Part shown: positions 1 through 35,249 of the stretch, one piece after another | Numbering within the stretch: position 1 is the first letter of the stretch | Layout: every line of letters begins with the position of its first letter | Source of the DNA: Alphaproteobacteria bacterium | Lineage (GTDB): Bacteria > Pseudomonadota > Alphaproteobacteria > UBA828 | Assembly (NCBI GenBank): GCA_965220745.1 | Contig: CBDCQT010000012.1 | Location: 32,001 to 96,000, forward strand | Direction: 5' to 3' | DNA: 64,000 bases | Notes under the pieces: generated by a model | Told to the model about the DNA's origin: nothing | Database searches by the model: none | The model's input: the letters and a program-made list of their open reading frames with translations, nothing else | Program-made: the position numbers and the translations under genes

Positions 1-556
1 TGACGGGAGCGGTCCCGACATGGCCGGCGGCGAGGGCGGCGTTCATGATCTGGCTGATGATTTCGAGCGCCTTGTTGGCTCCGCCCGGCGCGGTGCGGCT
101 GTAGGCGTCGAACCACCGCTCGACGTCGATCCGCCGGATGGCGTCCAGCGGGAGGCGGCCGAAGGCGGGGATCAACTGCCGCCTAAGTACAAGGTCGGCG
201 GATCGGCAGGACGACGGGGCGCAGCGGCGGCGGTACGCCGGCCACCACTCGACGAGAACGAAGTCGCGGAACAGGGGAGCGCGGGAACCTCCTTCCACCT
301 TGCACGGGACGGTTCCCAGGCGGAGCGCCAGGGCTCCCTTCCGAGCGTCCTCGACGGTCATGAGCGCAGTCGGGCCGATAGTCCTCCTGACCGGCTCTCC
401 CTGGACGCGCCCGTGCCAGACGAAGCTGCGATGCCCGGACGGGCGCACCCGCACGCCGAGGCCGGGCACCTCGCTGTCCCACACTACGTATTCCGTCTTG
501 CCCGGCTTCAACCTGCCGACGCCCGCGTCGGTCAGCCGGAGCCTCCGCCCCTTCAC
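1..556 (-). CDS. Tyrosine recombinase/integrase, N-terminal part (runs off the window); paralogue of 973-2133
   Basis: Absent from the ORF track. GTG at 556 overlaps the TGA at 553 (GTGA). Translates MKGRRLRLTDAGVGRLKPGKTEYVVWDSEVPGLGVRVRPSGHRSFVW, which aligns with MAAKRRRLTDANVAKLVPAAREYTVWDTRLAGLGVRVRPSGHRSFVY. Confidence 0.85.
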   Translation of the reverse strand, partial: MKGRRLRLTDAGVGRLKPGKTEYVVWDSEVPGLGVRVRPSGHRSFVWHGRVQGEPVRRTIGPTALMTVEDARKGALALRLGTVPCKVEGGSRAPLFRDFVLVEWWPAYRRRCAPSSCRSADLVLRRQLIPAFGRLPLDAIRRIDVERWFDAYSRTAPGGANKALEIISQIMNAALAAGHVGTAPV

Positions 557-858
557 GCCTGCCTCCCCGACAGGACGGGAGACAGGGTCTCGACCGCTTC
601 GCGAACCGTGGCGTCGGACAGGTGCGCGTATTTCAGAGTGGTCGACGCGTTCTCGTGACCGAGCAGGCGACCGACGGTGCGCACGCTCTCGCCGCAGAGC
701 AGTGCCATGCTGGCGTAGGAATGTCTCGTGTCGTGCAGGCGGACGTCCTGCAGCCCGGCTTCCTCCCTCACGCTGCGCCAGAAGGGATCCAGCCACAGCC
801 ACGGGGTGCGCAAACCGGCAACCGGGAAGACCCATCCGGACTGTTGCTCGGCGCGCAT
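553..858 (-). pseudogene. 5'-truncated tyrosine recombinase (C-terminal ~100 aa); paralogue of 2137-3270
   Basis: Contains VRLHDTRHSYAS, GRLLGHENASTTLKY, matching VRLHDCRHTYAS, GRLLGHRNPATTLKY of 2137-3270. The arm-binding domain and first catalytic Arg are missing. Confidence 0.85.
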
Positions 859-972
859 GTTGGCCGCCGATCGGCGTAGTAAAGCGTTGATTCGCTTCGA
901 TTCCGAGGGGTCAAACTTCGACGCCGAACAACGGGTGAGGGGCGCGGCGCCTGCTGGCGGCGGCGCGCCGGG

Positions 973-2133
973 TCAGCCGCCGTTTCCGGCGTCGCCGCCA
1001 TCCATTGTCCGCTCGATGGCTGCGCCGATTCGTTCCGCTGCCGCCTCGGTCTCCCGGTCGCCGACATGGGCGTAGCGCAGCGTCATGCCCGGATTCTTGT
1101 GACCCAGCAGGCGGGAGACAACCGGCAGCGGAACGCCTTGCAGGACGGCATGGCTGGCGAACGTATGCCGAAGGTCATGAATTCGCACGTCTTCGATGCC
1201 GGCTTCCCTGCGCGCCAAGTACCAGAGCGGCAGGTGAGTCGACAGCGGCCGCGCCGGATCGAACGGCGAGGGAAAGACGAAGGCGCTGCCCGATCGCGGC
1301 TGGCGCTCCAGGATGGCGCGGGCCGGCGCATTCAGGAACACCTGTCTCGGTCCGGTCTTGGCGTCGGCGAGGTTGAGCGTGTCTGCGTCCACATCCTGCC
1401 AGCGCATGGTCACAATCTCGCTCTTGCGGCAGCCGGTCAGCAGCAGCAGGCGGATGATGTCAGCCTGTTGCACGCGCGACGGCCGCGCGCCGGCGTAGCG
1501 GTCCAGCACGCGGTGGAGGCGATAGACTTCATCGCACGAGAGGAAGCGGGTGAGCCTGGGTCGGGGGTTGCGCTTGATGCCGTGCGTGGGGTTGGTGTCG
1601 AGGTGGCCGCAGTCGATCGCATGGTTCAGTATCTGGCGGAGCACGTTCAACGCACGATTGGCCCCGCCCGGCGCAGTCCTGCTGTACTCGTCGAACCAGC
1701 GGGTCACGGCGATCCGGCCGATCCGGTCTAGCGGCATCGGGCCGAAGGCCGGAAGCAGGAGCCCGCTCAGGACCAGGCGCACGCCCTTTTGCGTCGACGG
1801 CTTGCATGTGTCGAGCCGCGCCTGCGCCGGCCCCGCGACGAAGTCCGCGAAGGTCGGGACCGCTCCCCGTTCCGGCCTGCGGCCGTGCGGCGCGGTTTCG
1901 ATTTCGAGGCACCGCGCACGCGCTTCCTCGACGCCCATGAGCGCGGCAGGTCCGAGGGTGATCCTGCGCGCGCCGCCCTCGCCCTTGCGGCAATACACGA
2001 AGCTGCGGTGTCCCGACGGGCGGACGCGGACGCCGAGGCCCGCAAGGCGCGTGTCCCAGACCGTATACTCGCGCGCCGCCGGCACAAGCTTCGCCACGTT
2101 GGCGTCGGTCAGACGCCGCCTCTTCGCGGCCAT
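973..2133 (-). CDS. Tyrosine recombinase/integrase with N-terminal arm-DNA-binding domain (second of pair)
   Basis: Catalytic motifs LLTGCRKSE, DAKTG, HDLRH, LLGH and TLRY are all present; 386 aa. Confidence 0.93.
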   Translation of the reverse strand: MAAKRRRLTDANVAKLVPAAREYTVWDTRLAGLGVRVRPSGHRSFVYCRKGEGGARRITLGPAALMGVEEARARCLEIETAPHGRRPERGAVPTFADFVAGPAQARLDTCKPSTQKGVRLVLSGLLLPAFGPMPLDRIGRIAVTRWFDEYSRTAPGGANRALNVLRQILNHAIDCGHLDTNPTHGIKRNPRPRLTRFLSCDEVYRLHRVLDRYAGARPSRVQQADIIRLLLLTGCRKSEIVTMRWQDVDADTLNLADAKTGPRQVFLNAPARAILERQPRSGSAFVFPSPFDPARPLSTHLPLWYLARREAGIEDVRIHDLRHTFASHAVLQGVPLPVVSRLLGHKNPGMTLRYAHVGDRETEAAAERIGAAIERTMDGGDAGNGG

Positions 2134-2136
2134 GCC

Positions 2137-3270
2137 TCAACCCTCCACCAGTGCGGCGCCGACGGTCTCGGCTGCCTCGCGCACCATCGCGTCGGACAGA
2201 TGCGTGTATTTCAGCGTCGTCGCCGGATTGCGGTGCCCGAGGAGGCGGCCGATGGTCAGCACCGTCTCGCCCTGCGCGAGCGCCATGCTGGCGTACGTGT
2301 GCCGGCAATCGTGAAGGCGGACGTCGGACAGACCGGCTTCCGCTCTGACGCGATGCCAGAATTTGCCAAGCGTCACCGCGTGCACGAAGCCGGCCGTCCG
2401 CGGCGAGGGAAAGATCCAGGTTGCCGTACGAGGCAGTCCGTCGAGGACCGCGCGCGCGGGGGACGAGAGCCAGACCGTGCGCGGCCCCGACTTGGAGTCG
2501 CGCAGGAACAGCTTGCCCTCGCGGTACTCGCGCCACTTGAGCGAGACGATCTCGCCCTTGCGGCATCCGGTGAGCAGCAGCAGCCGTACGATCGCCACGA
2601 CCTGCGGATTATCGGCCTCGTGGCGTGCCAGCACTTCGCCCAGCCGGCGCATCTCGGCGGTAGACAGGAAGCGCTCCCGGCCCTGGCGGCGGTAGCGCTT
2701 GATGTCCGCGCACGGATTGGTCCCCTCCGGGCGATAGCCGTAGACCTCGGCCTGGCTCATGATGACCGAGAGCACCGGAGCCGAGCGGTCGGCCGCCACC
2801 GGGGTCTTGTGGAGGGAGGCGAACCATTGCCGGACGTCGCTCGCGGCGATGTCTGCGATCGGGCGCCCCTCGAACCAAGGCAGGATCTGGTTCTTGTAGT
2901 AGCCCCGGTTGACGTTGAGCGTCGAGGGCTTCCAGTTCCGGGCATAGCGGCGGAAGACTTCTTCGGCGACCGTCTCGAAGGCGACGTCCGCCGGTGCTGC
3001 AGTCTCGTCGCCGCTACCGTTGCGGATCGCGGCCAGCAGGCTCCTGGCCCGCTCGCGGGCCTCGTCCAGGCCAATGGCCCCGGCCTGGCCGACGATCTTC
3101 CAGAACCGCCGCCCGTTGTGCTGACTGTGGATGAAGTAACGCCTGGCGCCTGAGGGCAGGACCCTTACGCCAAAACCCTTGAGTTCGCGGTCGCGCACGT
3201 CGTAGGCGGACTTGCGGGGCTTGAGCGCATCGACCCGGCGTTCGCTGAGGCGAACCGTGGCCATTGACAT
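2137..3270 (-). CDS. Tyrosine recombinase/integrase with N-terminal arm-DNA-binding domain (first of pair)
   Basis: LLTGCRKGE, DSKSG, HDCRH, LLGH and TLKY present; GGAGG SD; 3-nt gap to the next integrase. Confidence 0.93.
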   Translation of the reverse strand: MSMATVRLSERRVDALKPRKSAYDVRDRELKGFGVRVLPSGARRYFIHSQHNGRRFWKIVGQAGAIGLDEARERARSLLAAIRNGSGDETAAPADVAFETVAEEVFRRYARNWKPSTLNVNRGYYKNQILPWFEGRPIADIAASDVRQWFASLHKTPVAADRSAPVLSVIMSQAEVYGYRPEGTNPCADIKRYRRQGRERFLSTAEMRRLGEVLARHEADNPQVVAIVRLLLLTGCRKGEIVSLKWREYREGKLFLRDSKSGPRTVWLSSPARAVLDGLPRTATWIFPSPRTAGFVHAVTLGKFWHRVRAEAGLSDVRLHDCRHTYASMALAQGETVLTIGRLLGHRNPATTLKYTHLSDAMVREAAETVGAALVEG

Positions 3271-3358
3271 TCCTCCGGCGTTCCGTTGCAGCCGGGGCGA
3301 AATCGGGGATCGACTCCGTGTCCTCCGGCTAGATCAGGAGGAAAAAAGCAACGCTGTG

Positions 3359-3939
3359 TCAGTATGTTAGAACCGTAGGTGCGCCGGCGGGTGTGAAGTT
3401 GTCTGTGGCTTCGCCGATGGCGTCCCAGAGTTCCGGGACGGTGCGGGCGGCGCGTCGCTTGAGGTAGGCCTTGAACTTGGAGAAGGCCATCTCGATCGGG
3501 TTGAGGTCGGGGCTGTAGGGCGGCAGGAAGTGGAGCTCGGCCCCGGCCTGGTGAATGGCGTCGCGGACAGCGCTGCTGCGGTGGCAGGCAAGGTTGTCCA
3601 TCACCACGATGTCGCCGGGCTTGAGCGTGGGCACCAGCACTTGGTCTACGTAGGCGAGGAAGGCGGCGCCATGCATGGCGCCGTCGAGCACCATGGGAGC
3701 GGTCATCCCGCTCAGCCTGAGGGCACCGACGAAGGTTGTGGTCTTCCAGTGGCCATGGGGCACAGGGGCGCGGCACCTCTGTCCGCGCGGAGCCCGGCCC
3801 GAGCGTCTCGCCATCTTGGTGGACGCGCCTGTTTCATCGACGAAGACGAGCTTCTCAGGGTCGAGATCGGGCTGGGCTTCGACCCAGGCGCGCCTGCGCC
3901 TGAGCACGTCAGCGCGTTGCTGCTCGCTGGCGTGCGCGG
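3359..3939 (-). CDS. IS630 transposase DDE part (orfB), reached by frameshift; aberrant C-terminus
   Basis: [15 protein letters not shown] and [16 protein letters not shown] motifs. The frame continues [12 protein letters not shown] from the A8 run at 3940-3947. Confidence 0.85.
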
Positions 3940-4384
3940 TTTTTTTTGAAGGTGATGCCGCGGCGGTGAAAGAAGCGCCACACCGCGCTCTGGGAGACCC
4001 GCAGGCCGTGCTCGTCCTCCAGGTGGGCGGCGATCTCCGCCAAGGTCATGTCCGGGGTCTCGTCCAGGAGCGCAAGCACCACCTCGGCCCGTGCCTCGAT
4101 CCGCTGCGAGCGTCTGTCGCCGCCCTGCGCTCTCGGCCGCCAGCTGCCCGTGCGGCGCCAGGCGCTGACCCACTTGATCGCCGTCGACGGCGCGATGCCG
4201 AAGCGTCTCGCCGCGCTCCGCCGGGACATGCCGCCATCGACCACCGCCGTCACCACCCGACGACGTAGATCATTCGAAAGAGGTCGCGTCATGCAGGCTG
4301 GCCTCCTTCACCAGCCTGCATCTTGAATCACATCTACAAGCAATTGAAAATTCTAAAGATTCTATAAGGTCGAAAAATGCTCTA
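3387..4384 (-). mobile_element. IS630-family element, 3' end truncated
   Basis: Left end TAGAGCATTTTTCGACC begins at TA 4383-4384. HTH orfA plus DDE orfB. No right IR; transposase-like sequence stops at NFTPA (~3387). Confidence 0.85.
3909..4292 (-). CDS. IS630 transposase HTH part (orfA)
   Basis: [14 protein letters not shown]...[11 protein letters not shown]...GITFKK, typical of IS630 orfA; AAGGAGG SD. Confidence 0.88.
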
Positions 4385-4551
4385 GAGCAATATCCGACCT
4401 GAGTGAATCGTATTAGTTTCCAATGACTTAATGCCCAACAGTCAGATGAACACGCTTTGTGCCGGAAGCTTGGCTAATGCGTCTGTGATGATTGTCAAGT
4501 TGCTTCGCCTTCAAAGCAGGCTGTGATCCAGGCTGATCGGATATTGCTCTA
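4383..4551. mobile_element. 169-bp IS630-type MITE
   Basis: Perfect 15-bp terminal IR TAGAGCAATATCCGA (4383-4397) / TCGGATATTGCTCTA (4537-4551), TA at both ends, no ORF; IR resembles the adjacent IS630 end. Confidence 0.8.
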
Positions 4552-4628
4552 ACAATCACCCACTGAGGGCTTGCCGGCCACGCAAGGCGATTCCTGACCG
4601 CAGGTACATTCGGACCAAATACCTGATG

Positions 4629-5256
4629 TGTTGTTAAGCGTGGAAAATTGCCCCCCCTTTGAATGTGTCCATGAACACGCCCCGTCGTTGGACGGACGGG
4701 GTGGGGGGAGATGCTGGTTGTGGAGACGATAGCGCGGATCCGTCGGGATCATCTTGTGAAGGGCGTTCCGATCAAGAAGCTCGCCCGTGATTTGAGGGTT
4801 TCGAAGAACACGATACGCAAGGTGGTTCGGGGCGATGCGACCTCGCACACGTATGAGCGCACGATCCAGCCGATGCCGAAGCTTGGACCGTGGGTGGACG
4901 AGCTGGAGCGCCAGCTGGAGGCCAACGAGAGGACGCCACGCCGGCTGCGTCTGTCTCTGCTGCGGATCTACGAGGACCTTGCGGCCCAGGGCTACGAGGG
5001 CGGTTATGACGCGGTTCGCCGCTACGCCCGGGCGTGGCGGCGCCGGCGGCGCCTGTTGTCACCGTCTCAGGCCTATGTGCCTCTGAGCTTCGATCCGGGC
5101 GAGGCCTACCAGTTCGACTGGAGCCACGAGTACGCGCGTCTGGCGGGGGCGACGAGCCGTGTGAAGGCCGCGCAGATGCGGCTCTGCTACAGCCGGATGC
5201 AGCTGGTCCAGGTCTTCCCGCGCGAAGGCCAGGAGATGGTCTTCGAGGCGCACGAG
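4629..5256 (+). mobile_element. IS21-family remnant (left end plus 5' part of istA)
   Basis: IS21-like end TGTTGTTAAGCGTGGAAAATTGCCCCCC; interrupted at 5257 by an IS3 terminal repeat. Confidence 0.8.
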
Positions 5257-5259
5257 TGA
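4711..5259 (+). pseudogene. istA: Truncated IS21 transposase IstA
   Basis: IKKLARDLRVSKNTIRK HTH, GYEGGYDAVRRY, FDPGEAYQFDW; its stop codon is supplied by the IS3 IR (TGA 5257-5259). Confidence 0.85.
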
Positions 5260-6035
5260 CCTGCCCCCGTCGACTGGTCCAAGTCGAATGTTAGTGCATT
5301 GCGGGTTTGCCGGCCAAGCTGGGTGACTGGCGGAGCGTAGCGGAGCCGGGCGGCCAGCTTGGCATGATGATCGTCTCCGGGGCGGGCGGCCGGTATCCCA
5401 GGCTGCCGTGTGGGCGGATCGCGTTGTAATGGCACCGCCACGATTCGATGAGAACCTGGGCTTCCTTCAGGGTGTAGAAGATCTCCCCGTTCAGGAGCTC
5501 GTCGCGCAGCCGCGCATTGAAGCTCTCGATGTAGCCGTTCTCCCAGGGTGAGCCCGGCTCGATGAAGGCGGTGCGGGCGCTGACCGCAGCGATCCACCGC
5601 CTGACGGCCTCGGCGACGAACTCCGGACCGTTGTCGGAACGGATCCAGGTCGGAATGCCGCGCAGGATGAACAGGTCGGTCAGCACATCGATGACGTCGA
5701 TCGAGGAAAGCCTCCTGCGCACCCGGATGACCAGGCTCTCGCGGGTGAACTCGTCCAGGACGTTGAGCATGCGGAAGGCCCTGCCGTCATACGTCCGGTG
5801 ATGGACGAAGTCGTAGGACCAGACGTGATCCGCCCTCTCGGCGCGCAGCCGGATGCAGGAGCCGTCATTGAGCCAAAGCCGGCCCCGCTTCGGTTGCTTG
5901 CCGGGCACCTTCAGCCCCTCGCGCCGCCACAAGCGCTCGATCCGCTTGTCGTTGACCTGCCAGCCGGCATCGCGAAGCAGGGCCGCGATGCGGCGATAGC
6001 CGTAACGGCCGTACTGGCGGGCCAGCTCGATCATG
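5257..6035 (-). mobile_element. Partial (3', 779 bp) copy of the IS3/IS407-group element
   Basis: Near-identical to 6036-6814 (offset 779); starts with IR TGACCTGCCCCCGTCGACTGGTCCA; a few substitutions near the orfB end. Confidence 0.92.
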
Positions 6036-6069
6036 TGACCTGCCCCCGTCGACTGGTCCAGGTCGAATG

Positions 6070-6966
6070 TTAGTGCATCGCGGGTTCCTCGGCCAAGCTG
6101 GGTGGCCGGCGGAGCGTAGCGGAGCCGGGCGGCCAGCTTGGCATGATGATCGTCTCCGGGGCGGGCGGCCGGTATCCCAGGCTGCCGTGTGGGCGGATCG
6201 CGTTGTAATGGCACCGCCACGATTCGATGAGAACCTGGGCTTCCTTCAGGGTGTAGAAGATCTCCCCGTTCAGGAGCTCGTCGCGCAGCCGCGCATTGAA
6301 GCTCTCGATGTAGCCGTTCTCCCAGGGTGAGCCCGGCTCGATGAAGGCGGTGCGGGCGCTGACCGCAGCGATCCACCGCCTGACGGCCTCGGCGACGAAC
6401 TCCGGACCGTTGTCGGAACGGATCCAGGTCGGAATGCCGCGCAGGATGAACAGGTCGGTCAGCACATCGATGACGTCGATCGAGGAAAGCCTCCTGCGCA
6501 CCCGGATGACCAGGCTCTCGCGGGTGAACTCGTCCAGGACGTTGAGCATGCGGAAGGCCCTGCCGTCATACGTCCGGTGATGGACGAAGTCGTAGGACCA
6601 GACGTGATCCGCCCTCTCGGCGCGCAGCCGGATGCAGGAGCCGTCATTGAGCCAAAGCCGGCCCCGCTTCGGTTGCTTGCCGGGCACCTTCAGCCCCTCG
6701 CGCCGCCACAAGCGCTCGATCCGCTTGTCGTTGACCTGCCAGCCGGCATCGCGAAGCAGGGCCGCGATGCGGCGATAGCCGTAACGGCCGTACTGGCGGG
6801 CCAGCTCGATCATGTACGCGACCAGGCGGTCCTCGTCGTCGCGGCCGCGCGGGATGCGGCGCTGGGTCGAGCGGTGCTGCCCCAGCACCCGGCAAGCGCG
6901 GCGTTCCGAGACCCCGAGCCGGTCACAGACATGATCGATGCACTGGCGCCGGCGCGAGGGGCTTAG
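6070..6966 (-). CDS. IS3 OrfB, rve/DDE integrase domain (OrfAB via -1 frameshift)
   Basis: YGYRRI, HVWSYDF, IRSDNGPEF and SPWENGYIESFNARLRDE motifs. Confidence 0.92.
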   Translation of the reverse strand, partial: LSPSRRRQCIDHVCDRLGVSERRACRVLGQHRSTQRRIPRGRDDEDRLVAYMIELARQYGRYGYRRIAALLRDAGWQVNDKRIERLWRREGLKVPGKQPKRGRLWLNDGSCIRLRAERADHVWSYDFVHHRTYDGRAFRMLNVLDEFTRESLVIRVRRRLSSIDVIDVLTDLFILRGIPTWIRSDNGPEFVAEAVRRWIAAVSARTAFIEPGSPWENGYIESFNARLRDELLNGEIFYTLKEAQVLIESWRCHYNAIRPHGSLGYRPPAPETIIMPSWPPGSATLRRPPSLAEEPAMH

Positions 6967-7241
6967 AAGTTTCCCCCTGCGGCCTCTTTGAGAATCTGCT
7001 TGTCCAGCGTCAGATCGGAGACCGCACGGCGCAGCCGCTCGTTCTCCTTCTCGAGCTCCTTCAAACGGCGGAGCTGATCGCCGCTCATCCCGGCATACTC
7101 CTTGCGCCAGCGGTAGAAGGTAACCTCGCTGATCCCAAGCTCGCGGATCGCGTCCGCCATCGACATGCCCTGGCCGTTCAGAACCTCAGCCCGCCGCAGC
7201 AGGCTCACGATCTCCTCGGGCTTGTAACGCTTCCTTGCCAT
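6963..7241 (-). CDS. IS3 OrfA (HTH)
   Basis: MARKRYKPEEIV...ISEVTFYRWRKEY...LKELEKENERLRRAVSDLTLDK; GAGGAGG SD. Confidence 0.92.
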   Translation of the reverse strand: MARKRYKPEEIVSLLRRAEVLNGQGMSMADAIRELGISEVTFYRWRKEYAGMSGDQLRRLKELEKENERLRRAVSDLTLDKQILKEAAGGNF

Positions 7242-7506
7242 CGTCGGTCCTCCTCTTTCCATAACCTAAGGGTGGACCAATCCGATGGGGGAGGATCAAT
7301 TGGAGGTCAGGAATGGTCGGGAGTTTACTTCGGAGTGCTTACTTGGTGAATATTTGCTTCGATCCGACGCCTCACTCGAATTCGAGCGTTCTTTCAAGCT
7401 ATTGACGTACAAAGAGTTTGACCGCTCGTGATGCAGACCGTGTTGGTGGTAAGAAATGCGGGTTAGACTCCGTGCCGGCTGCAATCCGGCTGAGGGAGCG
7501 CCGCCG

Positions 7507-27913: not shown

Positions 27914-29191
27914 ATGAGACGCCAGACCCGATCCCTTCGCCCGGTAACGGCACTTCTGATGGTTGGAAGCCTGGCCGGTGGCCTGTCCGCCTGCGGTGGC
28001 GGAGGTGGTGACGGGTCGTCCCCTCCGCCGATGCCCACAGCCAGCGGTGAGGCGCTCGACGTAGCGATCACCGCGGATCCCCCGTCAACGGCACCGGACC
28101 TGCTGAGCGCGGACGGCTCGGGGACGCCCGCGGACGGCACGATGCTCGAGGAGGCAGCCGACGCGGCCAGAGCCACAATCGACGGCTGGGACGGCAGCGT
28201 GTACGAGCGAATGAACGAGGCGAATGGTACGCCGGCTTCGACAGAAACATTCGTGATCTATAGCAACAAAGACGCGCCGGAGGACACGCCGTTCAGCGAT
28301 GTTTATCCGTTCGATTATGACGCGGACAACGACGCAGCGAATGACTCTTTGATCGTCGACGACTCAAACGTGGGGTTAGTCAGTGGCGTGGCTGAGTTCC
28401 CTTCGGCAGTCAATCAAGTGGACGTGCCGTTCACGGACGACGATACGTTCATGGGCATGTTCGCCGGCGCGCCGGGCAGCTACACCTGCGTCTCGATGTG
28501 CACACTCTCAACCAATATGGATGCAGAATTGAGCGCCGTCGGCGGCGACTGGATCTTCGCACCCAACGACGATGAGTTCCCGGTGCCGGTTGACGACAGC
28601 GACTACATCCATTTCGGCTACTGGATGAATGAGTCGGAAGAGAACGACCAGCCCGTCATGATGGCAGCCGCCATCGCCGGCGGAACCGACCCGTCCCCCA
28701 TCGGCACCGTTCAAAGCCTCGAGGGTCAGGCCAGCTACAGTGGCGCGGCGACGGGCCTCTACGTGATCAGAACTTTTACGTTGGACGGTGAAGTCCAGAG
28801 CCGGACGGGCGGACAGTTCACCGCCGATGCGACGCTGACGGCCTACTTTGGCGGCGACGACGTAGCCGTCAACAAGCACTGCTCGATCGTCGGCACGATC
28901 GAGAATTTCGGGGACCAACGCGGCAGCCCCATCGACTCAAGCTGGAGCGTCGAGCTGGAGGCAGCGCGGTTCGGCAGTCAACAAGGCGGCACGTTCCGTG
29001 GCGCGACCGAGGGCGACCAAGGCCTGATGGGCTCCTGGGACGGCCGGTTCTTCGGACCTGTGGCCGTCGACGGCGACGATACGATGCCGGGGAACCAGTC
29101 TACGTTCCCGAGCGCCGTGGCCGGAACCTTCGACGCCGCGTTTACGAACGGCGCCGTCATCGGCTCCTTCGGCACAGAGAGAGACGACTGA
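27914..29191 (+). CDS. Acidic surface lipoprotein with TbpB-like C-terminal beta-barrel
   Basis: Lipobox LSAC followed by a GGGGG linker; ASYSGAATG, FTADATLTAYF, WDGRFFG, GTFDA...VIGSFG. Confidence 0.72.
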   Translation: MRRQTRSLRPVTALLMVGSLAGGLSACGGGGGDGSSPPPMPTASGEALDVAITADPPSTAPDLLSADGSGTPADGTMLEEAADAARATIDGWDGSVYERMNEANGTPASTETFVIYSNKDAPEDTPFSDVYPFDYDADNDAANDSLIVDDSNVGLVSGVAEFPSAVNQVDVPFTDDDTFMGMFAGAPGSYTCVSMCTLSTNMDAELSAVGGDWIFAPNDDEFPVPVDDSDYIHFGYWMNESEENDQPVMMAAAIAGGTDPSPIGTVQSLEGQASYSGAATGLYVIRTFTLDGEVQSRTGGQFTADATLTAYFGGDDVAVNKHCSIVGTIENFGDQRGSPIDSSWSVELEAARFGSQQGGTFRGATEGDQGLMGSWDGRFFGPVAVDGDDTMPGNQSTFPSAVAGTFDAAFTNGAVIGSFGTERDD

Positions 29192-29312
29192 CGCAGACGC
29201 TGTGGGCGCGCGCCGGCGCCTATCTAGAGGACCGAAATCGGGCAGCGCTATTGGATGGAGACGCGGCCGTCTGAATCCTGCCGCCCCTTCCCCTCTGTCG
29301 CTAGCACAGAAC

Positions 29313-29327
29313 TTGACAAATCATGAT
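29313..29327 (+). promoter_or_regulatory. Probable -35 box and autoregulatory operator of the TA operon
   Basis: TTGACA (29313-29318) followed by the palindrome ATCATGAT (29320-29327). Confidence 0.45.
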
Positions 29328-29367
29328 ATGAGAAGATAGGTCTGCGAGAAGCAATCGGGACCTTGCC

Positions 29368-29595
29368 ATGCCGCAGACGCGCGAAAAATTTGCCACCCAG
29401 GTTGACGGTGCGCTGCTGTCCGACCTGCGAGGGTTGGCGAAACAGGAAGGGCGTCAAATTCAGGCGCTCGTCGAAGAGGCGATCGCAGCGCTGATTGAGC
29501 AGCGGCGACACGGCACCGCCCGCCCACACGTGATGAGCGCCTATCTAAAGAGCCACGCCCGCTACGCACCGCTCTACAAGAAACTCGCGAAGTGA
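29368..29595 (+). CDS. Putative antitoxin (RHH-like) for Doc
   Basis: 75 aa, REKFATQVD strand followed by helices; C-terminus YKKLAK; GTGA overlap with doc. Confidence 0.8.
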   Translation: MPQTREKFATQVDGALLSDLRGLAKQEGRQIQALVEEAIAALIEQRRHGTARPHVMSAYLKSHARYAPLYKKLAK

Positions 29596-29972
29596 CGCGG
29601 GATTATTTGACCCTTGCCGACGTTCTCGCCATCCATGACGACCAGATCGCGACCTATGGCGGCGCGGAGGGTGTGCGGGATCCGGGCCAGTTGGAAGCCG
29701 CACTGTTCCGACCGCAGAGCGGCTATTACGCCGATGTGATCGCGGAAGCGGCGGCCCTTTGGGAGAGCCTCTCGCAGAATCATCCTTTCATCGACGGCAA
29801 CAAACGCACCGCTTTCGCCGCGACGTTCACGTTTCTCGCCATCAACGGTGTGGAGCTTACAGCCAGCGCTGACGAGGCGTGGACATTTCTGTCCCGCCTC
29901 TACGACCGCAGCGAACTCACGTTCGACGCGCTCGATGCATGGCTCCGCGACAACACGAAGCCTGTGAGTTAG
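29592..29972 (+). CDS. doc: Doc (Fic/Doc family) toxin
   Basis: YGGAEGVRD and the Doc motif HPFIDGNKRTA; 126 aa. Confidence 0.92.
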   Translation: MTRDYLTLADVLAIHDDQIATYGGAEGVRDPGQLEAALFRPQSGYYADVIAEAAALWESLSQNHPFIDGNKRTAFAATFTFLAINGVELTASADEAWTFLSRLYDRSELTFDALDAWLRDNTKPVS

Positions 29973-29984
29973 CGCCAGGCAGCG

Positions 29985-30359
29985 CTACTCGTGGACGTCG
30001 AAGCGGAACGACTTCGAGACGATCTTCCACTCGCCGTCGATCTTGACGAGGCTCAGGAAGTCCGTGAAGTAGCGCGGATGAATCGCGCACTCGCAGGTCA
30101 CGACGGCGGTGTTCTCGTCCGACATGTCGATGGAGAGGATCTTGTCGAAGCGCGCCTGCCCCGTCGACGCCGGCGGCACGCGGCCCCTCACGATTTCGAA
30201 CCACTCCTCGCGCGGCCAGTCGACGAACTTGCCGTCCATGTTCGCGAAGAGGCGGCTGGACGGGTGAAAGATCGTGGCGAGCTTCTCCGTGTCGCACTCG
30301 TATAGCCCGTCGAAATAGACCTGCACCACGTCGGTGATCTCTTGGTAGCTGTTGCTCAT
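29985..30359 (-). CDS. NTF2-like (lumazine-binding 2) protein
   Basis: YFDGLYECD...FHP...FTDFLSLVKIDGEWKIVSK; GGAGGGAG SD. Confidence 0.85.
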   Translation of the reverse strand: MSNSYQEITDVVQVYFDGLYECDTEKLATIFHPSSRLFANMDGKFVDWPREEWFEIVRGRVPPASTGQARFDKILSIDMSDENTAVVTCECAIHPRYFTDFLSLVKIDGEWKIVSKSFRFDVHE

Positions 30360-30554
30360 TCGTGCTCCCTCCAGTCCCTTGCGGCCCCTTGGCCCGTTCC
30401 GCCGACCACGGACCCCGTATAGGCTTTTGCGCCTACCCACAAGAGCCGTATCGCCGGCGCCGAGCTTGATCCCCGGACGGGCTGGCGTGCTACCGTCCCA
30501 CTCTGCGACAGCGAGGGCCGACCGGAGGCCGCGCCGGGCGCGGGAGGGAGACCG

Positions 30555-31776: not shown

Positions 31777-32100
31777 ATGGCCGACGCTGCATTGCCGGAC
31801 GGGTTCGAGGACCTCACCCCCTGGCTCGACTGGGCGCTGGAGCCCGAGCGCGCGCGCTCGGCGAAGAAAACCGAGTCCTCGATGGAGGAACTCCGCGCCT
31901 TCTACGACGCGATGATGCCGCGTATGGAGGAGATCATCGCCTACCTGGATGGCGTTCCTGACGACGACAGGCCGGCGCCGGCGCACCGCCTCTACCTGAT
32001 CACCCTCTCACTCGTCGAAGTCGCCAACCTCGTGGAGATCTACAAGCGCCGCGAGGTGATCGAGGCCTGCGACCCCCTGCACTTCAACCCGCAGCACTGA
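31777..32100 (+). CDS. Small acidic hypothetical protein co-oriented with the Rieske oxygenase
   Basis: 107 aa, AAGGAG SD, host-like codon usage. Confidence 0.75.
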   Translation: MADAALPDGFEDLTPWLDWALEPERARSAKKTESSMEELRAFYDAMMPRMEEIIAYLDGVPDDDRPAPAHRLYLITLSLVEVANLVEIYKRREVIEACDPLHFNPQH

Positions 32101-32196: not shown

Positions 32197-33072
32197 CTAC
32201 TGAGCCGGTTTCTCGGGCTGGGAATCCAGTGCACGTTCTGCCAGCTTTAGCGCCCCTAGCATGTCCTCTCGCAGGAACTTCATGTAATTCTCGAATACTT
32301 CCTGTGTCCATTCTGGCCCCGACAAAAGGCTCATCATGAATTGCTTTATTGTAGGATCAGTTTCATCTTCAATAGTTTGAGGTTTTTCGGCCTCCTCTAT
32401 TGTGTTTCTAACCATACGCAACACTGAAGCTCTCGATTTAGCTCGCGGCTTACGCTCTGCAGATGAATACAGACTTGTTGTTCCCCATCTTTCTCCCTTA
32501 AAGTACTTAAGTCTATCCTTGGCACTCAAATTGAGACTCCGAAATTTGAATCCAGATACTTTCTCCTTTGCAATTGCTTCTACGATTTCTCTTTGAGTAA
32601 TGATGCTTGGAAAGCTGGCCTTCATTCCAGTCAGGCGAAAGGCTAATACGACAGATCTCCCAACAAGATCAAAATGCTCTCCATTTTCGTCGGTCACCTT
32701 AGTCAACAAGGCGTCGTGCTCCACCGTTATACCATGCTTCAGCCGGAATCGAGTTTCTCCACTAACTCCCAGGCCAGTTACATTATTCATTACTGTGATT
32801 TGCTTGCTAATTGTGACGATTCTTGCGGCCTGACATCCTAGCTCCCTGTGCAACTCAATCGGAAACCACGCTAAAAATCCGTCCCCTGTCCACTTGACGA
32901 ATCGGCCACCGGCTGCATTTACGGCCAACTTACCCAACCAATGTAGCCTTTGGAAATATTCCTCTACAGCTTGTGCAGACTCATTCTCGTAAAGATATTT
33001 TGAGGAGTTCTGAATGTCACAAACCCAAACGATCCCCCGCCCGCGCTCAAATGTAAACTTGGTCTCCTTCAT
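32197..33072 (-). CDS. Stand-alone class III nucleotidyl cyclase-domain protein (low GC)
   Basis: VCDIQNSS, FVKWTGDGFLAWF, DLVGRSVVLAFRL. Confidence 0.82.
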   Translation of the reverse strand: MKETKFTFERGRGIVWVCDIQNSSKYLYENESAQAVEEYFQRLHWLGKLAVNAAGGRFVKWTGDGFLAWFPIELHRELGCQAARIVTISKQITVMNNVTGLGVSGETRFRLKHGITVEHDALLTKVTDENGEHFDLVGRSVVLAFRLTGMKASFPSIITQREIVEAIAKEKVSGFKFRSLNLSAKDRLKYFKGERWGTTSLYSSAERKPRAKSRASVLRMVRNTIEEAEKPQTIEDETDPTIKQFMMSLLSGPEWTQEVFENYMKFLREDMLGALKLAERALDSQPEKPAQ

Positions 33073-33297
33073 TTCTCAACGCGTCTCCAAACTTCCACTT
33101 GTTCTGTGGCGAAATATCAAGACTAGCTTTTCGGGCACTATCACTTTCAGTGGTCGAATTCTCGAACTGGGTCATTTTCTGCCAAGTGCACACGGCCCTC
33201 ACCCAGGCCGTACACTGGTTGGTGTCGAAGAGTTATTGGTTCCTCGCCATAAATTGAGTGCCGCCTGACCCCGCGACAGGGACTCGACGCCTGGTAT

Positions 33298-33462
33298 TCA
33301 CTTCGCCAACTGCTTCAGCACCTCGCGGTCGTCGCGCATGATCTCCTCGGCCAGCGCCTCCTGGCGAGCATCGTCGGACTCATTCGAGGGCAGCCGCTGA
33401 TCCTCGCCCGGCGTCTTGGGCAGATCGGGCAAATCGCCTTTCTTCACCTTGCTACTCATCAT
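33298..33462 (-). CDS. 54-aa orphan ORF with Doc-antidote-like C-terminus
   Basis: [54 protein letters not shown]; ATGA overlap with the aspS stop; GGAG SD. Confidence 0.6.
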
Positions 33463-35249
33463 CCTTCTCCCTGCTTTGGCGGCAGGTCGAGCTTGAGGCT
33501 CAGCTCCTTGAGGTGCTTGTCGGGCACGGTCGCAGGTGCCCCCATCATCAGGTCCTGCGCCGTCTGGTTGAGTGGGAACATGATGACCTCGCGGATGTTG
33601 GGCTCGTCCGAGAGCAGCATGACGATCCGGTCGATCCCAGGCGCGATGCCGCCGTGGGGTGGCGCGCCGTACTGGAAGGCATGGTAGAGCGCGCCGAAGC
33701 GGCGCTTCACCTCGTCCTCACCGTAGCCCGCGATCTCGAACGCCTTGACCATCAGATCGGGCTGGTGATTGCGGATCGCACCGCTGGAAAGCTCCACGCC
33801 GTTGCAGACGATATCGTACTGGTAGGCCAGCACGCTGAGCGGATCGTCGCTCTCCAGCGCCTCCATCCCGCCTTGCGGCATGGAGAAGGGGTTGTGGCTG
33901 AAGCCGATGGCGCCGGTCTGCTCGTCGCGCTCGAACATCGGGTAGTCGACGATCCAGCAGAACGCGAACCTGTCCTCGTCGATGAGCTCCAGCCGCGTGC
34001 CGAGTTCCAGCCTCACGGCCCCGGCATAGCGCGCGGCTGCGGCCGGCCTGTCGCAGCTCAGAAACACCGCATCGCCGTCCTCGAGGCCCGCGATCGTGCG
34101 AATCTCCTCCTGCACCGCCTCCGGCACGAACTTCGCGATCGGCCCCTTGCCGGCGCCGTCGGCAAAGGTGATGTAGCCGAGGCCGGGCGCGCCCAGGTCT
34201 TGGGCGAACCCGATCATCCGGTCGAAGAAGCTGCGCGGCTGGTCCGCGATCCCCTTCACCGGAATGCCGCGCACGACGCCCCCCTTCGCAATGGTGCCCT
34301 TGAAGGCCTTGAACGTCACCTCCTCGCGCCCGAACTGCTCGGTGAGGTCGACGATCTCGATGGGGATGCGCAGGTCCGGCTTGTCCGTGCCGAAGCGCAG
34401 CATCGCGTCCTTGTAGGCGAAGCGCGGGAACGGCGGTTTGGTGACCGCGCGCTCGGTGAACTCCGTGAAGACGCCGTGCATCACCGGTTCCAGCGCGTCG
34501 AACACGTCCTCCTGCTCGACGAACGCCATCTCGACATCGAGCTGGTAGAACTCGCCGGGGGAGCGGTCGGCGCGCGCGTCCTCGTCGCGGAAGCAGGGCG
34601 CGATCTGAAAGTAGCGGTCGAAGCCGGACGCCATCACCAGCTGCTTGAACTGCTGCGGCGCCTGCGGCAGCGCGTAGAAGGTTCCGGGATGCAGCCGGCT
34701 CGGCACCAGGAAATCCCGCGCGCCCTCGGGCGAGCTCGCGGTGAGAATTGGCGTGTGGCATTCCATGAAGCCCTGCTCGACCATGTGCCGGCGGATGCTG
34801 GCGACGATGGCGCTTCGGCGCACCATGTTCTGGTGCATGCGCTCGCGCCTGAGGTCGAGGAAGCGGTAGCGGAGCCGCACCTCCTCGCCATAGTCGTGCT
34901 CGCCGTGAACCGGCAACGGCAGGGTCTCGGCCGCGTTCTGCACCTGGAGCTCGGCGATCCGCACCTCGACCTCGCCGGTGGGAATCTTGGGGTTCACGGT
35001 CTCAGCGTCGCGCGTCACCACCGGGCCGGTCAGGGTCACCACCGTCTCGGGCTTGAACGCCGTCACCGCATCGAACAGCGGCTCGCCGCTCTCGGCAACG
35101 CACTGGGTGATGCCGTAGTGGTCGCGCAGGTCCACGAAGACGAGATGGCCGTGATCGCGCACCCGATGGACCCAGCCGGAGAGGCGCACGGTCGAGCCGA
35201 CATCGGACGGCCTGAGCGCGCCGCAGGTATGCGTTCGGAATCGATGCAT
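33459..35249 (-). CDS. aspS: Aspartate--tRNA ligase (probably non-discriminating)
   Basis: [37 protein letters not shown]. Confidence 0.98.

Follow-up and report, generated by a model that had tools for sequence, protein, structure and literature searches.

Paired tyrosine integrase genes in an alphaproteobacterial genome as the probable left-end module of a family of large mobilizable islands

The window analysed here is a stretch of 64,000 nucleotides from Alphaproteobacteria bacterium (lineage UBA828; source genome GCA_965220745.1, hereafter G000), positions 32,001 to 96,000 of the forward strand of contig CBDCQT010000012.1 (C12). Near its start lie two adjacent tyrosine recombinase genes, B and A, next to a truncated insertion sequence (IS) of the IS630 family. 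Positions 973–3394 are probably the left-end integration module (left attachment site, attL, with B and A) of a family of integrative mobilizable elements (IMEs), called islands below, whose intact members measure 20–56 kb; the window copy went into the IS630 and was split afterwards. Module copies within G000 are labelled c2, c4, c6 and c7, genomes of relatives carry G-numbers such as G005, G011 and G020, and loci of related modules carry L-numbers. The features of the locus are as follows.

3385–4385, minus strand: IS630-family insertion sequence, the island's target, with DDE_3 and HTH domains; its last ~62 bp are absent.
3384–3394, minus strand: attL core, made up of ACACC (3394–3390, native IS630 sequence) and the six-base spacer CGCCGG (3389–3384).
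3271–3383, minus strand: conserved left end of the island, including the leader of gene B; begins CGCACCTACGGTTCTAAC.
2137–3270, minus strand: integrase B, a P4-type tyrosine recombinase of 377 aa (Pfam domains, monophyletic B clade).
973–2133, minus strand: integrase A, a P4-type tyrosine recombinase of 386 aa (Pfam domains, A clade).
933–972, minus strand: final island DNA retained after A; the island interior is gone from here on.
841–933, no strand: ~93-bp dispersed repeat with terminal inverted repeats, resembling a miniature inverted-repeat transposable element (12-copy alignment; nhmmer match C12:32841–32933, E 2.3e-24).
553–841, minus strand: B′ fragment, covering ~95 residues at the C-terminal end of B in c7, a second and diverged module (C-terminal Phage_integrase match).
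1–550, minus strand: A′ of module c7, N-terminal part; the gene extends past the window to C12:31384.

The IS630, B, A, B′ and A′ thus all share the minus strand. An earlier note on this DNA had described two co-oriented recombinase genes with a 3-nt gap, each encoding an arm-binding N-domain and a complete R-K-H-R-H-Y catalytic set, and this description holds; the catalytic tyrosines are Y354 of A and Y355 of B. The ATG of A lies 3 nt past the stop codon of B, with GGAGG within the last B codons, and a Pfam scan detected Arm-DNA-bind_3, Phage_int_M/SAM and Phage_integrase domains in both proteins (Arm-DNA-bind_3 at 29.3 and 37.1 bits against a cut-off of 27, core-binding Phage_int_M at 28.5 bits). 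The best named families in NCBIfam were Xer models, at 45–73 bits far under their cut-offs of 220–335, and the closest solved structures were Xer-like, HP1 and integron integrases, with E values of 1e-9 or weaker.

The module is always a B-A pair. G000 holds six full B-A copies with 60–81% protein identity, plus c7 and several fragments, and all 20 other genomes of the genus that were searched have module matches, often many (up to a dozen copies and fragments per genome), which nearly always span approximately window positions 988–1025 to 3384–3396, a module of ~2.4 kb. A wider scan, with one genome per species, found 204 relatives, and 80 loci were kept, 46 of them with a full A-type gene at ≥50% identity; six of the 46 were without upstream sequence, leaving 40 testable loci. 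Directly upstream of A in these was a full B gene in 35 and a partial one in four, with B lying 3.4 kb away in the last (L099), hence the A and B types are as consistently paired as the earlier note supposed. Host records were metagenome-assembled genomes (MAGs) of Alphaproteobacteria, Defluviicoccus, Rhodospirillales and a few others. Of 59 intact pairs, in which some loci are represented twice, 55 have a B-A gap of 3 nt, the remainder being 2 nt in two rows (one locus twice), a 1-nt overlap in one, and c4, which was uncallable. Among 52 unique pairs, A and B of one pair were 33–42% identical, the catalytic six were invariant in both proteins of every pair, and A-A distances followed B-B distances closely (Mantel r 0.929, 0 of 999 permutations as high). 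In the phylogeny, the A clade and the B clade were each monophyletic, were mutual sisters, and branched congruently. Nothing was conserved downstream of A in seven aligned G000 copies and the sequence upstream of B was flank, hence there is no third recombinase.

Only the B side was seen to have a sharp end common to the copies. There, homology sets in at one and the same position in 25 of 25 aligned copies, and 45 unique left junctions show an unconserved flank, ACACC (41–45 of 45 at each position), five variable bases, a G (34 of 45) and then CGCACCTTCGGTGCTAA; the family consensus for the start of the left end is CGCACCTTCGGTGCTAAC. The A side has no common end, pairwise homology ending at points between ~50 nt short of the A stop and ~140 nt beyond it. 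In the window, the stretch after A is homologous to the relative L047 for 20 nt beyond the A stop by BLAST, and by eye as far as CCCCTCACC at ~933–941. The left-end 18-mer occurs once per module, a search of G000 for a second copy, inverted or direct, with ≤3 mismatches finding none, and no inverted copy of the left end with ≤6 mismatches was found in two complete islands. The island termini are unlike, and by eye their arms share little beyond an outer CTAA.

These ends bear on the interpretation put forward in the earlier note, an autonomous, cargo-less, IS-like transposon of ~2.5 kb (849–3386) with imperfect inverted motifs at its edges, moved by its own two recombinases. Many copies per genome do share a ~2.4-kb block, and in two pairs of loci the likeness is confined to that block: 97.6% over 2389 bp for L048/L049 and 96.9% over 2452 bp for L053/L054. 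The motif pair CGGCGC-N25-28-AGCGTTGMTT is also real, occurring exactly twice in the window where none is expected (100 shuffles), but the motifs are not element ends. The left motif (849–892) sits inside the unrelated ~93-bp dispersed repeat, and the first three bases of the right one, CGG, belong to the variable spacer, which is unconserved among the 45 left ends; what the right motif overlaps is the true left end of the island. The repeat has terminal inverted repeats TGTTGTTCGGCG...CGCCGAACAACA (12 copies aligned) and 31 nhmmer matches in G000, 27 of them with E<1e-3, and the AGCGTTGATT part of the left motif is unconserved among its copies. The motif pair is a coincidence of two unrelated things. 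Furthermore, copies that were expected to end at the same bases in different contexts do so on the B side only, whereas on the A side homology ends at differing bases. The absence of cargo is true of the window copy alone, because that copy is broken; other copies head cargo-bearing islands. L048 forms the left end of an island that measures 30.3 kb and has a typical right end, the five complete elements described below have cargo together with direct repeats, and the right junction matching the window copy lies elsewhere (C12:276793). The compact transposon is therefore largely refuted, and we regard it as highly improbable.

The earlier note had also observed that a further recombinase starts abruptly beside the unit, and indeed the homology of B′ to copy c4 (91% nucleotide identity) begins at window position 841. 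The ~93-bp repeat directly adjoins an N-terminally truncated integrase gene in three places, namely B′ in the window, an A fragment at C10:275831 and a fragment at C5:64297. It is also present at G000 C10:275735–275828, at C5:64181–64274 and in about 24 other places, and a GTTGTT... sequence resembling it interrupts the A side of the relative L058.

Five complete elements with both ends were recovered, 19.7–48.2 kb long, each with B-A at the left end and with ACACC+N5 repeated directly at its two junctions (≤1 mismatch in N5), rather than the inverted flanking motifs that the earlier note had proposed. Two are from G005, on C1 (~19.7 kb) and C4 (~23.9 kb); these copies have >13 kb in common beyond the module, and with a third copy they have the module and a distal block of ~9 kb in common. 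Their right ends read ...GTAGTGC|ACACC plus a hexamer of which five of six bases match the hexamer at their own left end (CTGATG/GTGATG and TACATG/AACATG). The rule drawn from these ends, ACACC plus a matching hexamer, was used to find three further complete islands. In G000, c2 (C10:293062/318801) measures 25,718 bp with junctions ACACCTTCATG and ACACCTTCATC, and c6 (C5:128330/176597) measures 48,246 bp with junctions ACACC-GCCTAA and ACACC-CCCTAC. The third, L048 in G011, had earlier appeared to be a bare 2.4-kb unit; it is ~30.3 kb long and its right end, ...AGTGTAAGTGC|ACACCACCGGA, follows 1.45 kb of the common right module.

Near the right end of c2 and c6 is a TrwC relaxase gene with helicase domains (3e-74 and 5e-76, respectively), and among the other genes of c6 are those for Fic, ABC-transporter and oxidoreductase proteins. 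Domain scans covered 15 c2 proteins and 10 c6 proteins, and ~14 kb of c6 is unannotated, so a transfer apparatus is possible there. The layout of the family is a target ACACC with a spacer of ~5–6 nt, then CGCACCTTCGGTGCTAAC..., B, A, variable cargo, a NikA-like gene and the TrwC relaxase, ending in ...GT(T/A)GT(C/G)C | ACACC plus spacer.

Comparison with relatives that have empty sites shows the islands to be insertions. In G000 the two flanks of c2 stand 25.7 kb from each other, and in at least nine of 20 relatives they overlap by 8–10 bases; the unoccupied site (attB) in G011 runs left flank-ACACCTTCATC-right flank and reads ...ctcaagcACACCTTCATCgacaagg.... For c6, 15 of 20 relatives show the two flanks meeting with a 10-base overlap. 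In G020, ~56 kb separates the flanks and the left one borders a B-A module, so that a related ~56-kb island (G020:C6:182281–238653) occupies the exact c6 site. The empty sites carry ACACC, which therefore pre-exists in the target; it is already present in the intact IS630, in the G011 attB and at the 5′ end of the tRNA-Pro gene beside L056.

Such empty sites contradict the idea that the pair is a resident system of Xer-like resolution or DNA inversion which just happens to be located in variable regions. The best named-family matches of A and B are Xer models, all far under cut-off as given above, which would favour a resident system of this kind. Xer proteins serve chromosome resolution and have no arm-binding domains, whereas A and B have the arm-binding N-domains typical of integrases; the number of copies and fragments per genome also argues against it, and with the islands inserted relative to empty sites we give it next to no chance.

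The window copy can be read against this background. Its IS630 is cut at position 3385, at the edge of the unit as the earlier note had it, and is 100% identical over 1000–1001 bp to copies at C12:403473–404473 and C5:340675–341674, both of which continue past the cut. These intact copies match the window copy up to ...TTCACACCCGCCG and then run on for ~62 bp. The window attL reads ...AACTTCACACCCGCCG|GCGCACC..., and the intact IS630 has CGCCGA where the window has CGCCGG; the last ~62 bp are missing because the island went in at ACACC-CGCCGA. The counterpart (attR) lies at C12:276793 on the opposite strand, 241 kb away, and reads ...CTTGTTGTC|ACACCCGACGAATGCCAAAAC.... There a right end of the c2 type is followed by precisely the IS630 tail that the window copy lacks, such that attL and attR rebuild the IS630, and the ~6 kb to the left of C12:276792 are collinear with the right (relaxase) module of c2. 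The 5′ half in the window and the 3′ half at C12:276793 are the only orphan IS630 halves in G000 broken at that site. The most economical reading of these junctions is that one island inserted into one IS630 and was later torn apart, and the rearrangement that the earlier note suspected at the element is real, the right junction of the window island being now 241 kb away.

A 249-nt short-read contig in runs X18 and X19, which may be the source sample, spans window positions 715–963 without differences, hence the junction between the A tail, the repeat and B′ is not peculiar to this assembly. Contigs of four runs on window positions 1–6000 were short pieces; among those listed none bridges position 3385, and loose ends there continue into intact IS630. 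A single inversion restoring the window island was considered and rejected, the reciprocal junction (the N-terminal part of B′ beside island cargo) being absent among the tblastn matches. The DNA downstream of the close relatives L046, L047, L051 and L052 gave no lead on the split. A solo left end, ACACC-GAGCGG-CGCACCTGCGGTACTAAC, was observed at G000 C12:265490–265507 on the minus strand, ~5 kb from the orphan right module of the window island; it is followed by unrelated DNA with no integrase gene.

Movement of the islands would be by conservative site-specific recombination. A circular attP, ordered right end-ACACC-spacer-left end, would recombine with those ACACC sites that are followed by ~5 bases matching the spacer of the element, with approximately one mismatch tolerated. 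Target-like ACACC+N5 occurs at both junctions, as conservative recombination gives when attP carries the same core. Between attL and attR, the first spacer base differs (target-like in attL, element-like in attR), as does the sixth (the element's G in attL), which places the exchange within the central bases. Cell-to-cell transfer would proceed via the relaxase and a helper conjugation system. Translational coupling is predicted to yield A and B in a fixed ratio, and the two proteins may act together as a heteromeric integrase, each reading one of two unlike core half-sites. On one side the sequence toward the spacer is CACACC, and the other strand has GGTGCG, a situation suiting two different recombinases, as with XerC/XerD. 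The asymmetric half-sites, the coupling, the obligate pairing and the co-divergence together suggest such a heteromer. The two-enzyme recombinase of the earlier note is hence plausible from the pairing, the 3-nt gap and the co-divergence, with the heteromer itself put forward from sequence.

A stricter version would be a widespread family of islands that move in the manner of a transposon, by means of an obligate A-B heterotetramer in which one subunit reads the invariant ACACC of attP and target and the other reads the GCGCACC arm. The ~5-base attP overlap would pick the sites, and tolerated, inherited mismatches would slowly re-programme the targets of each lineage. We consider this version possible but rather doubtful; if true, lineage re-programming of target specificity would explain the many islands per genome at unrelated loci.

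The same islands might instead be served by a division of labour, in which one integrase carries out integration and excision at ACACC and the other has a separate role, such as tRNA-fMet targeting, directionality, or resolution of tandems or dimers. With its catalytic set complete, either protein could act alone, and the sister clade contains single integrases, two of which lie beside tRNA-fMet 3′ fragments in G000 (C5:35537 and C12:126980). In five relatives, L053, L054, L059 (G012), L055 (G004) and L056 (G008), a tRNA-fMet 3′ half (CTCATAACC to CCA; partial in L054) is observed at or ~100 nt after the A stop, inside the island, and may be left over from an ancestor that targeted tRNA-fMet. 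Among the islands seen, however, none has tRNA-fMet sequence at its boundaries, and the strict 3-nt coupling, the near-obligate adjacency and a co-divergence of r = 0.93 that holds down to 50% identity suggest a joint function. The half-sites around the spacer are also unlike each other, as at XerC/XerD sites. On balance, we consider separate roles for the two enzymes unlikely. Permuted integration via the tRNA-fMet-like piece was considered and rejected, the DNA upstream of B in those copies not being a right end.

Several results weigh against the two-integrase IME interpretation, or at least qualify it. The genomes compared are related MAGs whose counts are not independent, hence the figures for pairing and co-divergence overstate independence. 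The NikA-like matches in c2 and c6 are weak and fall under the Pfam cut-off. No excised circle, attP junction or activity was observed; a scan of metagenome contigs for right-end/ACACC/left-end junctions gave one match, an ordinary attL inside a gene. A single inversion with no reciprocal junction found does not restore the window island, so more than one event is needed. Modules L053 and L054 are 96.9% identical, yet their spacers are CAATCG and ATTATG, which strains spacer-guided targeting, and the tRNA-fMet pieces just after A in five relatives are unexplained by the island model. Finally, coupling and co-divergence would also fit two enzymes with separate jobs.

The B-A family is apparently an undescribed family of two-integrase IMEs, set apart from the nearest known elements by their descriptions. 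Islands and IMEs with a single P4-type (arm-binding, DUF4102) integrase resemble it in protein architecture, in the integrase at one end, in target direct repeats and in a relaxase, probably without a full transfer apparatus (for the B-A islands, among the 15 c2 and 10 c6 proteins scanned). They differ in that the B-A family has two co-evolving integrases, and in that they use one tRNA or gene as target, whereas B-A islands use ACACC plus a variable spacer at many loci, with several islands per genome. XerC/XerD at dif, two paralogous recombinases each reading one unlike half-site around a short centre, offer a likeness to the working model only.

Among multi-recombinase elements, Tn554 (tyrosine recombinases TnpA and TnpB with TnpC), as partly covered in PMC10214605 and PMC3414803, likewise has two tandem recombinases at the left end, asymmetric ends and a short variable core by the end. 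It is set apart by description, as a tnpA-tnpB-tnpC trio, whereas the B-A module has no conserved third gene after A, its proteins carry arm-binding domains, its islands have cargo and a relaxase, and both junctions are target-like. SEs (strand-biased circularizing integrative elements), in the portion of PMC10214605 covered here, have the gene order intA-tfp-intB, need srap, end in imperfect inverted termini of 13–19 bp, were found in Gammaproteobacteria only, and have flanking hexamers that differ in origin. SEs and GInt (ginABCD), on the same portion of that paper, resemble the B-A islands in a multi-recombinase operon at the left end of a cargo island and in a site-dependent six-base spacer by the terminal motif. 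By gene layout SEs are distinct, since the 3-nt B-A gap leaves no space for tfp; furthermore, B-A island termini are unlike each other and have no 13–19 bp inverted motifs in the two complete islands searched, both spacers resemble the target, and the genomes that carry them are MAGs of Alphaproteobacteria. RIT (recombinase in trio) elements are tandem tyrosine recombinase genes present in multiple copies in Alpha- and Betaproteobacteria (PMC3414803, as far as covered); they share the tightly packed tandem genes, but have three recombinases and no cargo, against two with cargo in the B-A family. Two further candidates were set aside from partial coverage of their sources: BIM 'bipartite modules' have one recombinase and an unrelated protein and hence are not relevant (PMC3414803), and the Vibrio mutS element has single integrases (PMC5296598). 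In the literature covered on tandem or paired tyrosine integrases (including PMC3414803, PMC10214605, PMC8138268 and PMC5296598, whose supplementary tables fell outside the scope and might list pairs), a mobilizable island with two P4-type integrases is undescribed.

With the B-A family, the known multi-recombinase elements (Tn554, RIT, GInt and SE) would gain a class with two integrases. The family's anatomy is clear, comprising both ends, empty sites, a relaxase and a five-base target. Uncultured marine Alphaproteobacteria hold it in abundance; there it bears tens of kilobases of cargo and gives rise to rearrangements, the split of the window copy being one. Annotators should not take such pairs for two prophage integrases. 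Similar pairs occur on plasmids of cultured Shewanella oneidensis MR-1 and Paracoccus versutus, and the heteromer question is therefore testable at the bench.

The paired integrase architecture is wider than the B-A family. The plasmid pairs, L157 (S. oneidensis MR-1 megaplasmid, 32496–34993) and L158 (P. versutus pTAV1, 27945–30475), are co-oriented genes overlapping by 4 bp, ~40% identical to A and annotated 'site-specific integrase', with similar pairs on Vibrio and Shewanellaceae contigs (L107–L109). A second family of co-oriented integrase pairs is present in G000 itself (C3:182259–184706, C8:8337–10778, C9:24971–27372, C10:806612–809127 and C13:705777–708494), 35–40% identical to A/B, with gaps of -4 to 39 nt and with upstream and downstream members in separate clades.

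Elsewhere in the window, positions 5291–7262 hold two overlapping, near-identical IS3-family transposase frames (5291–6376 and 6070–6888) after an orfA-like frame (6963–7262), an arrangement resembling a partial tandem duplication, and a truncated IS21-like istA frame lies at 4711–5259.

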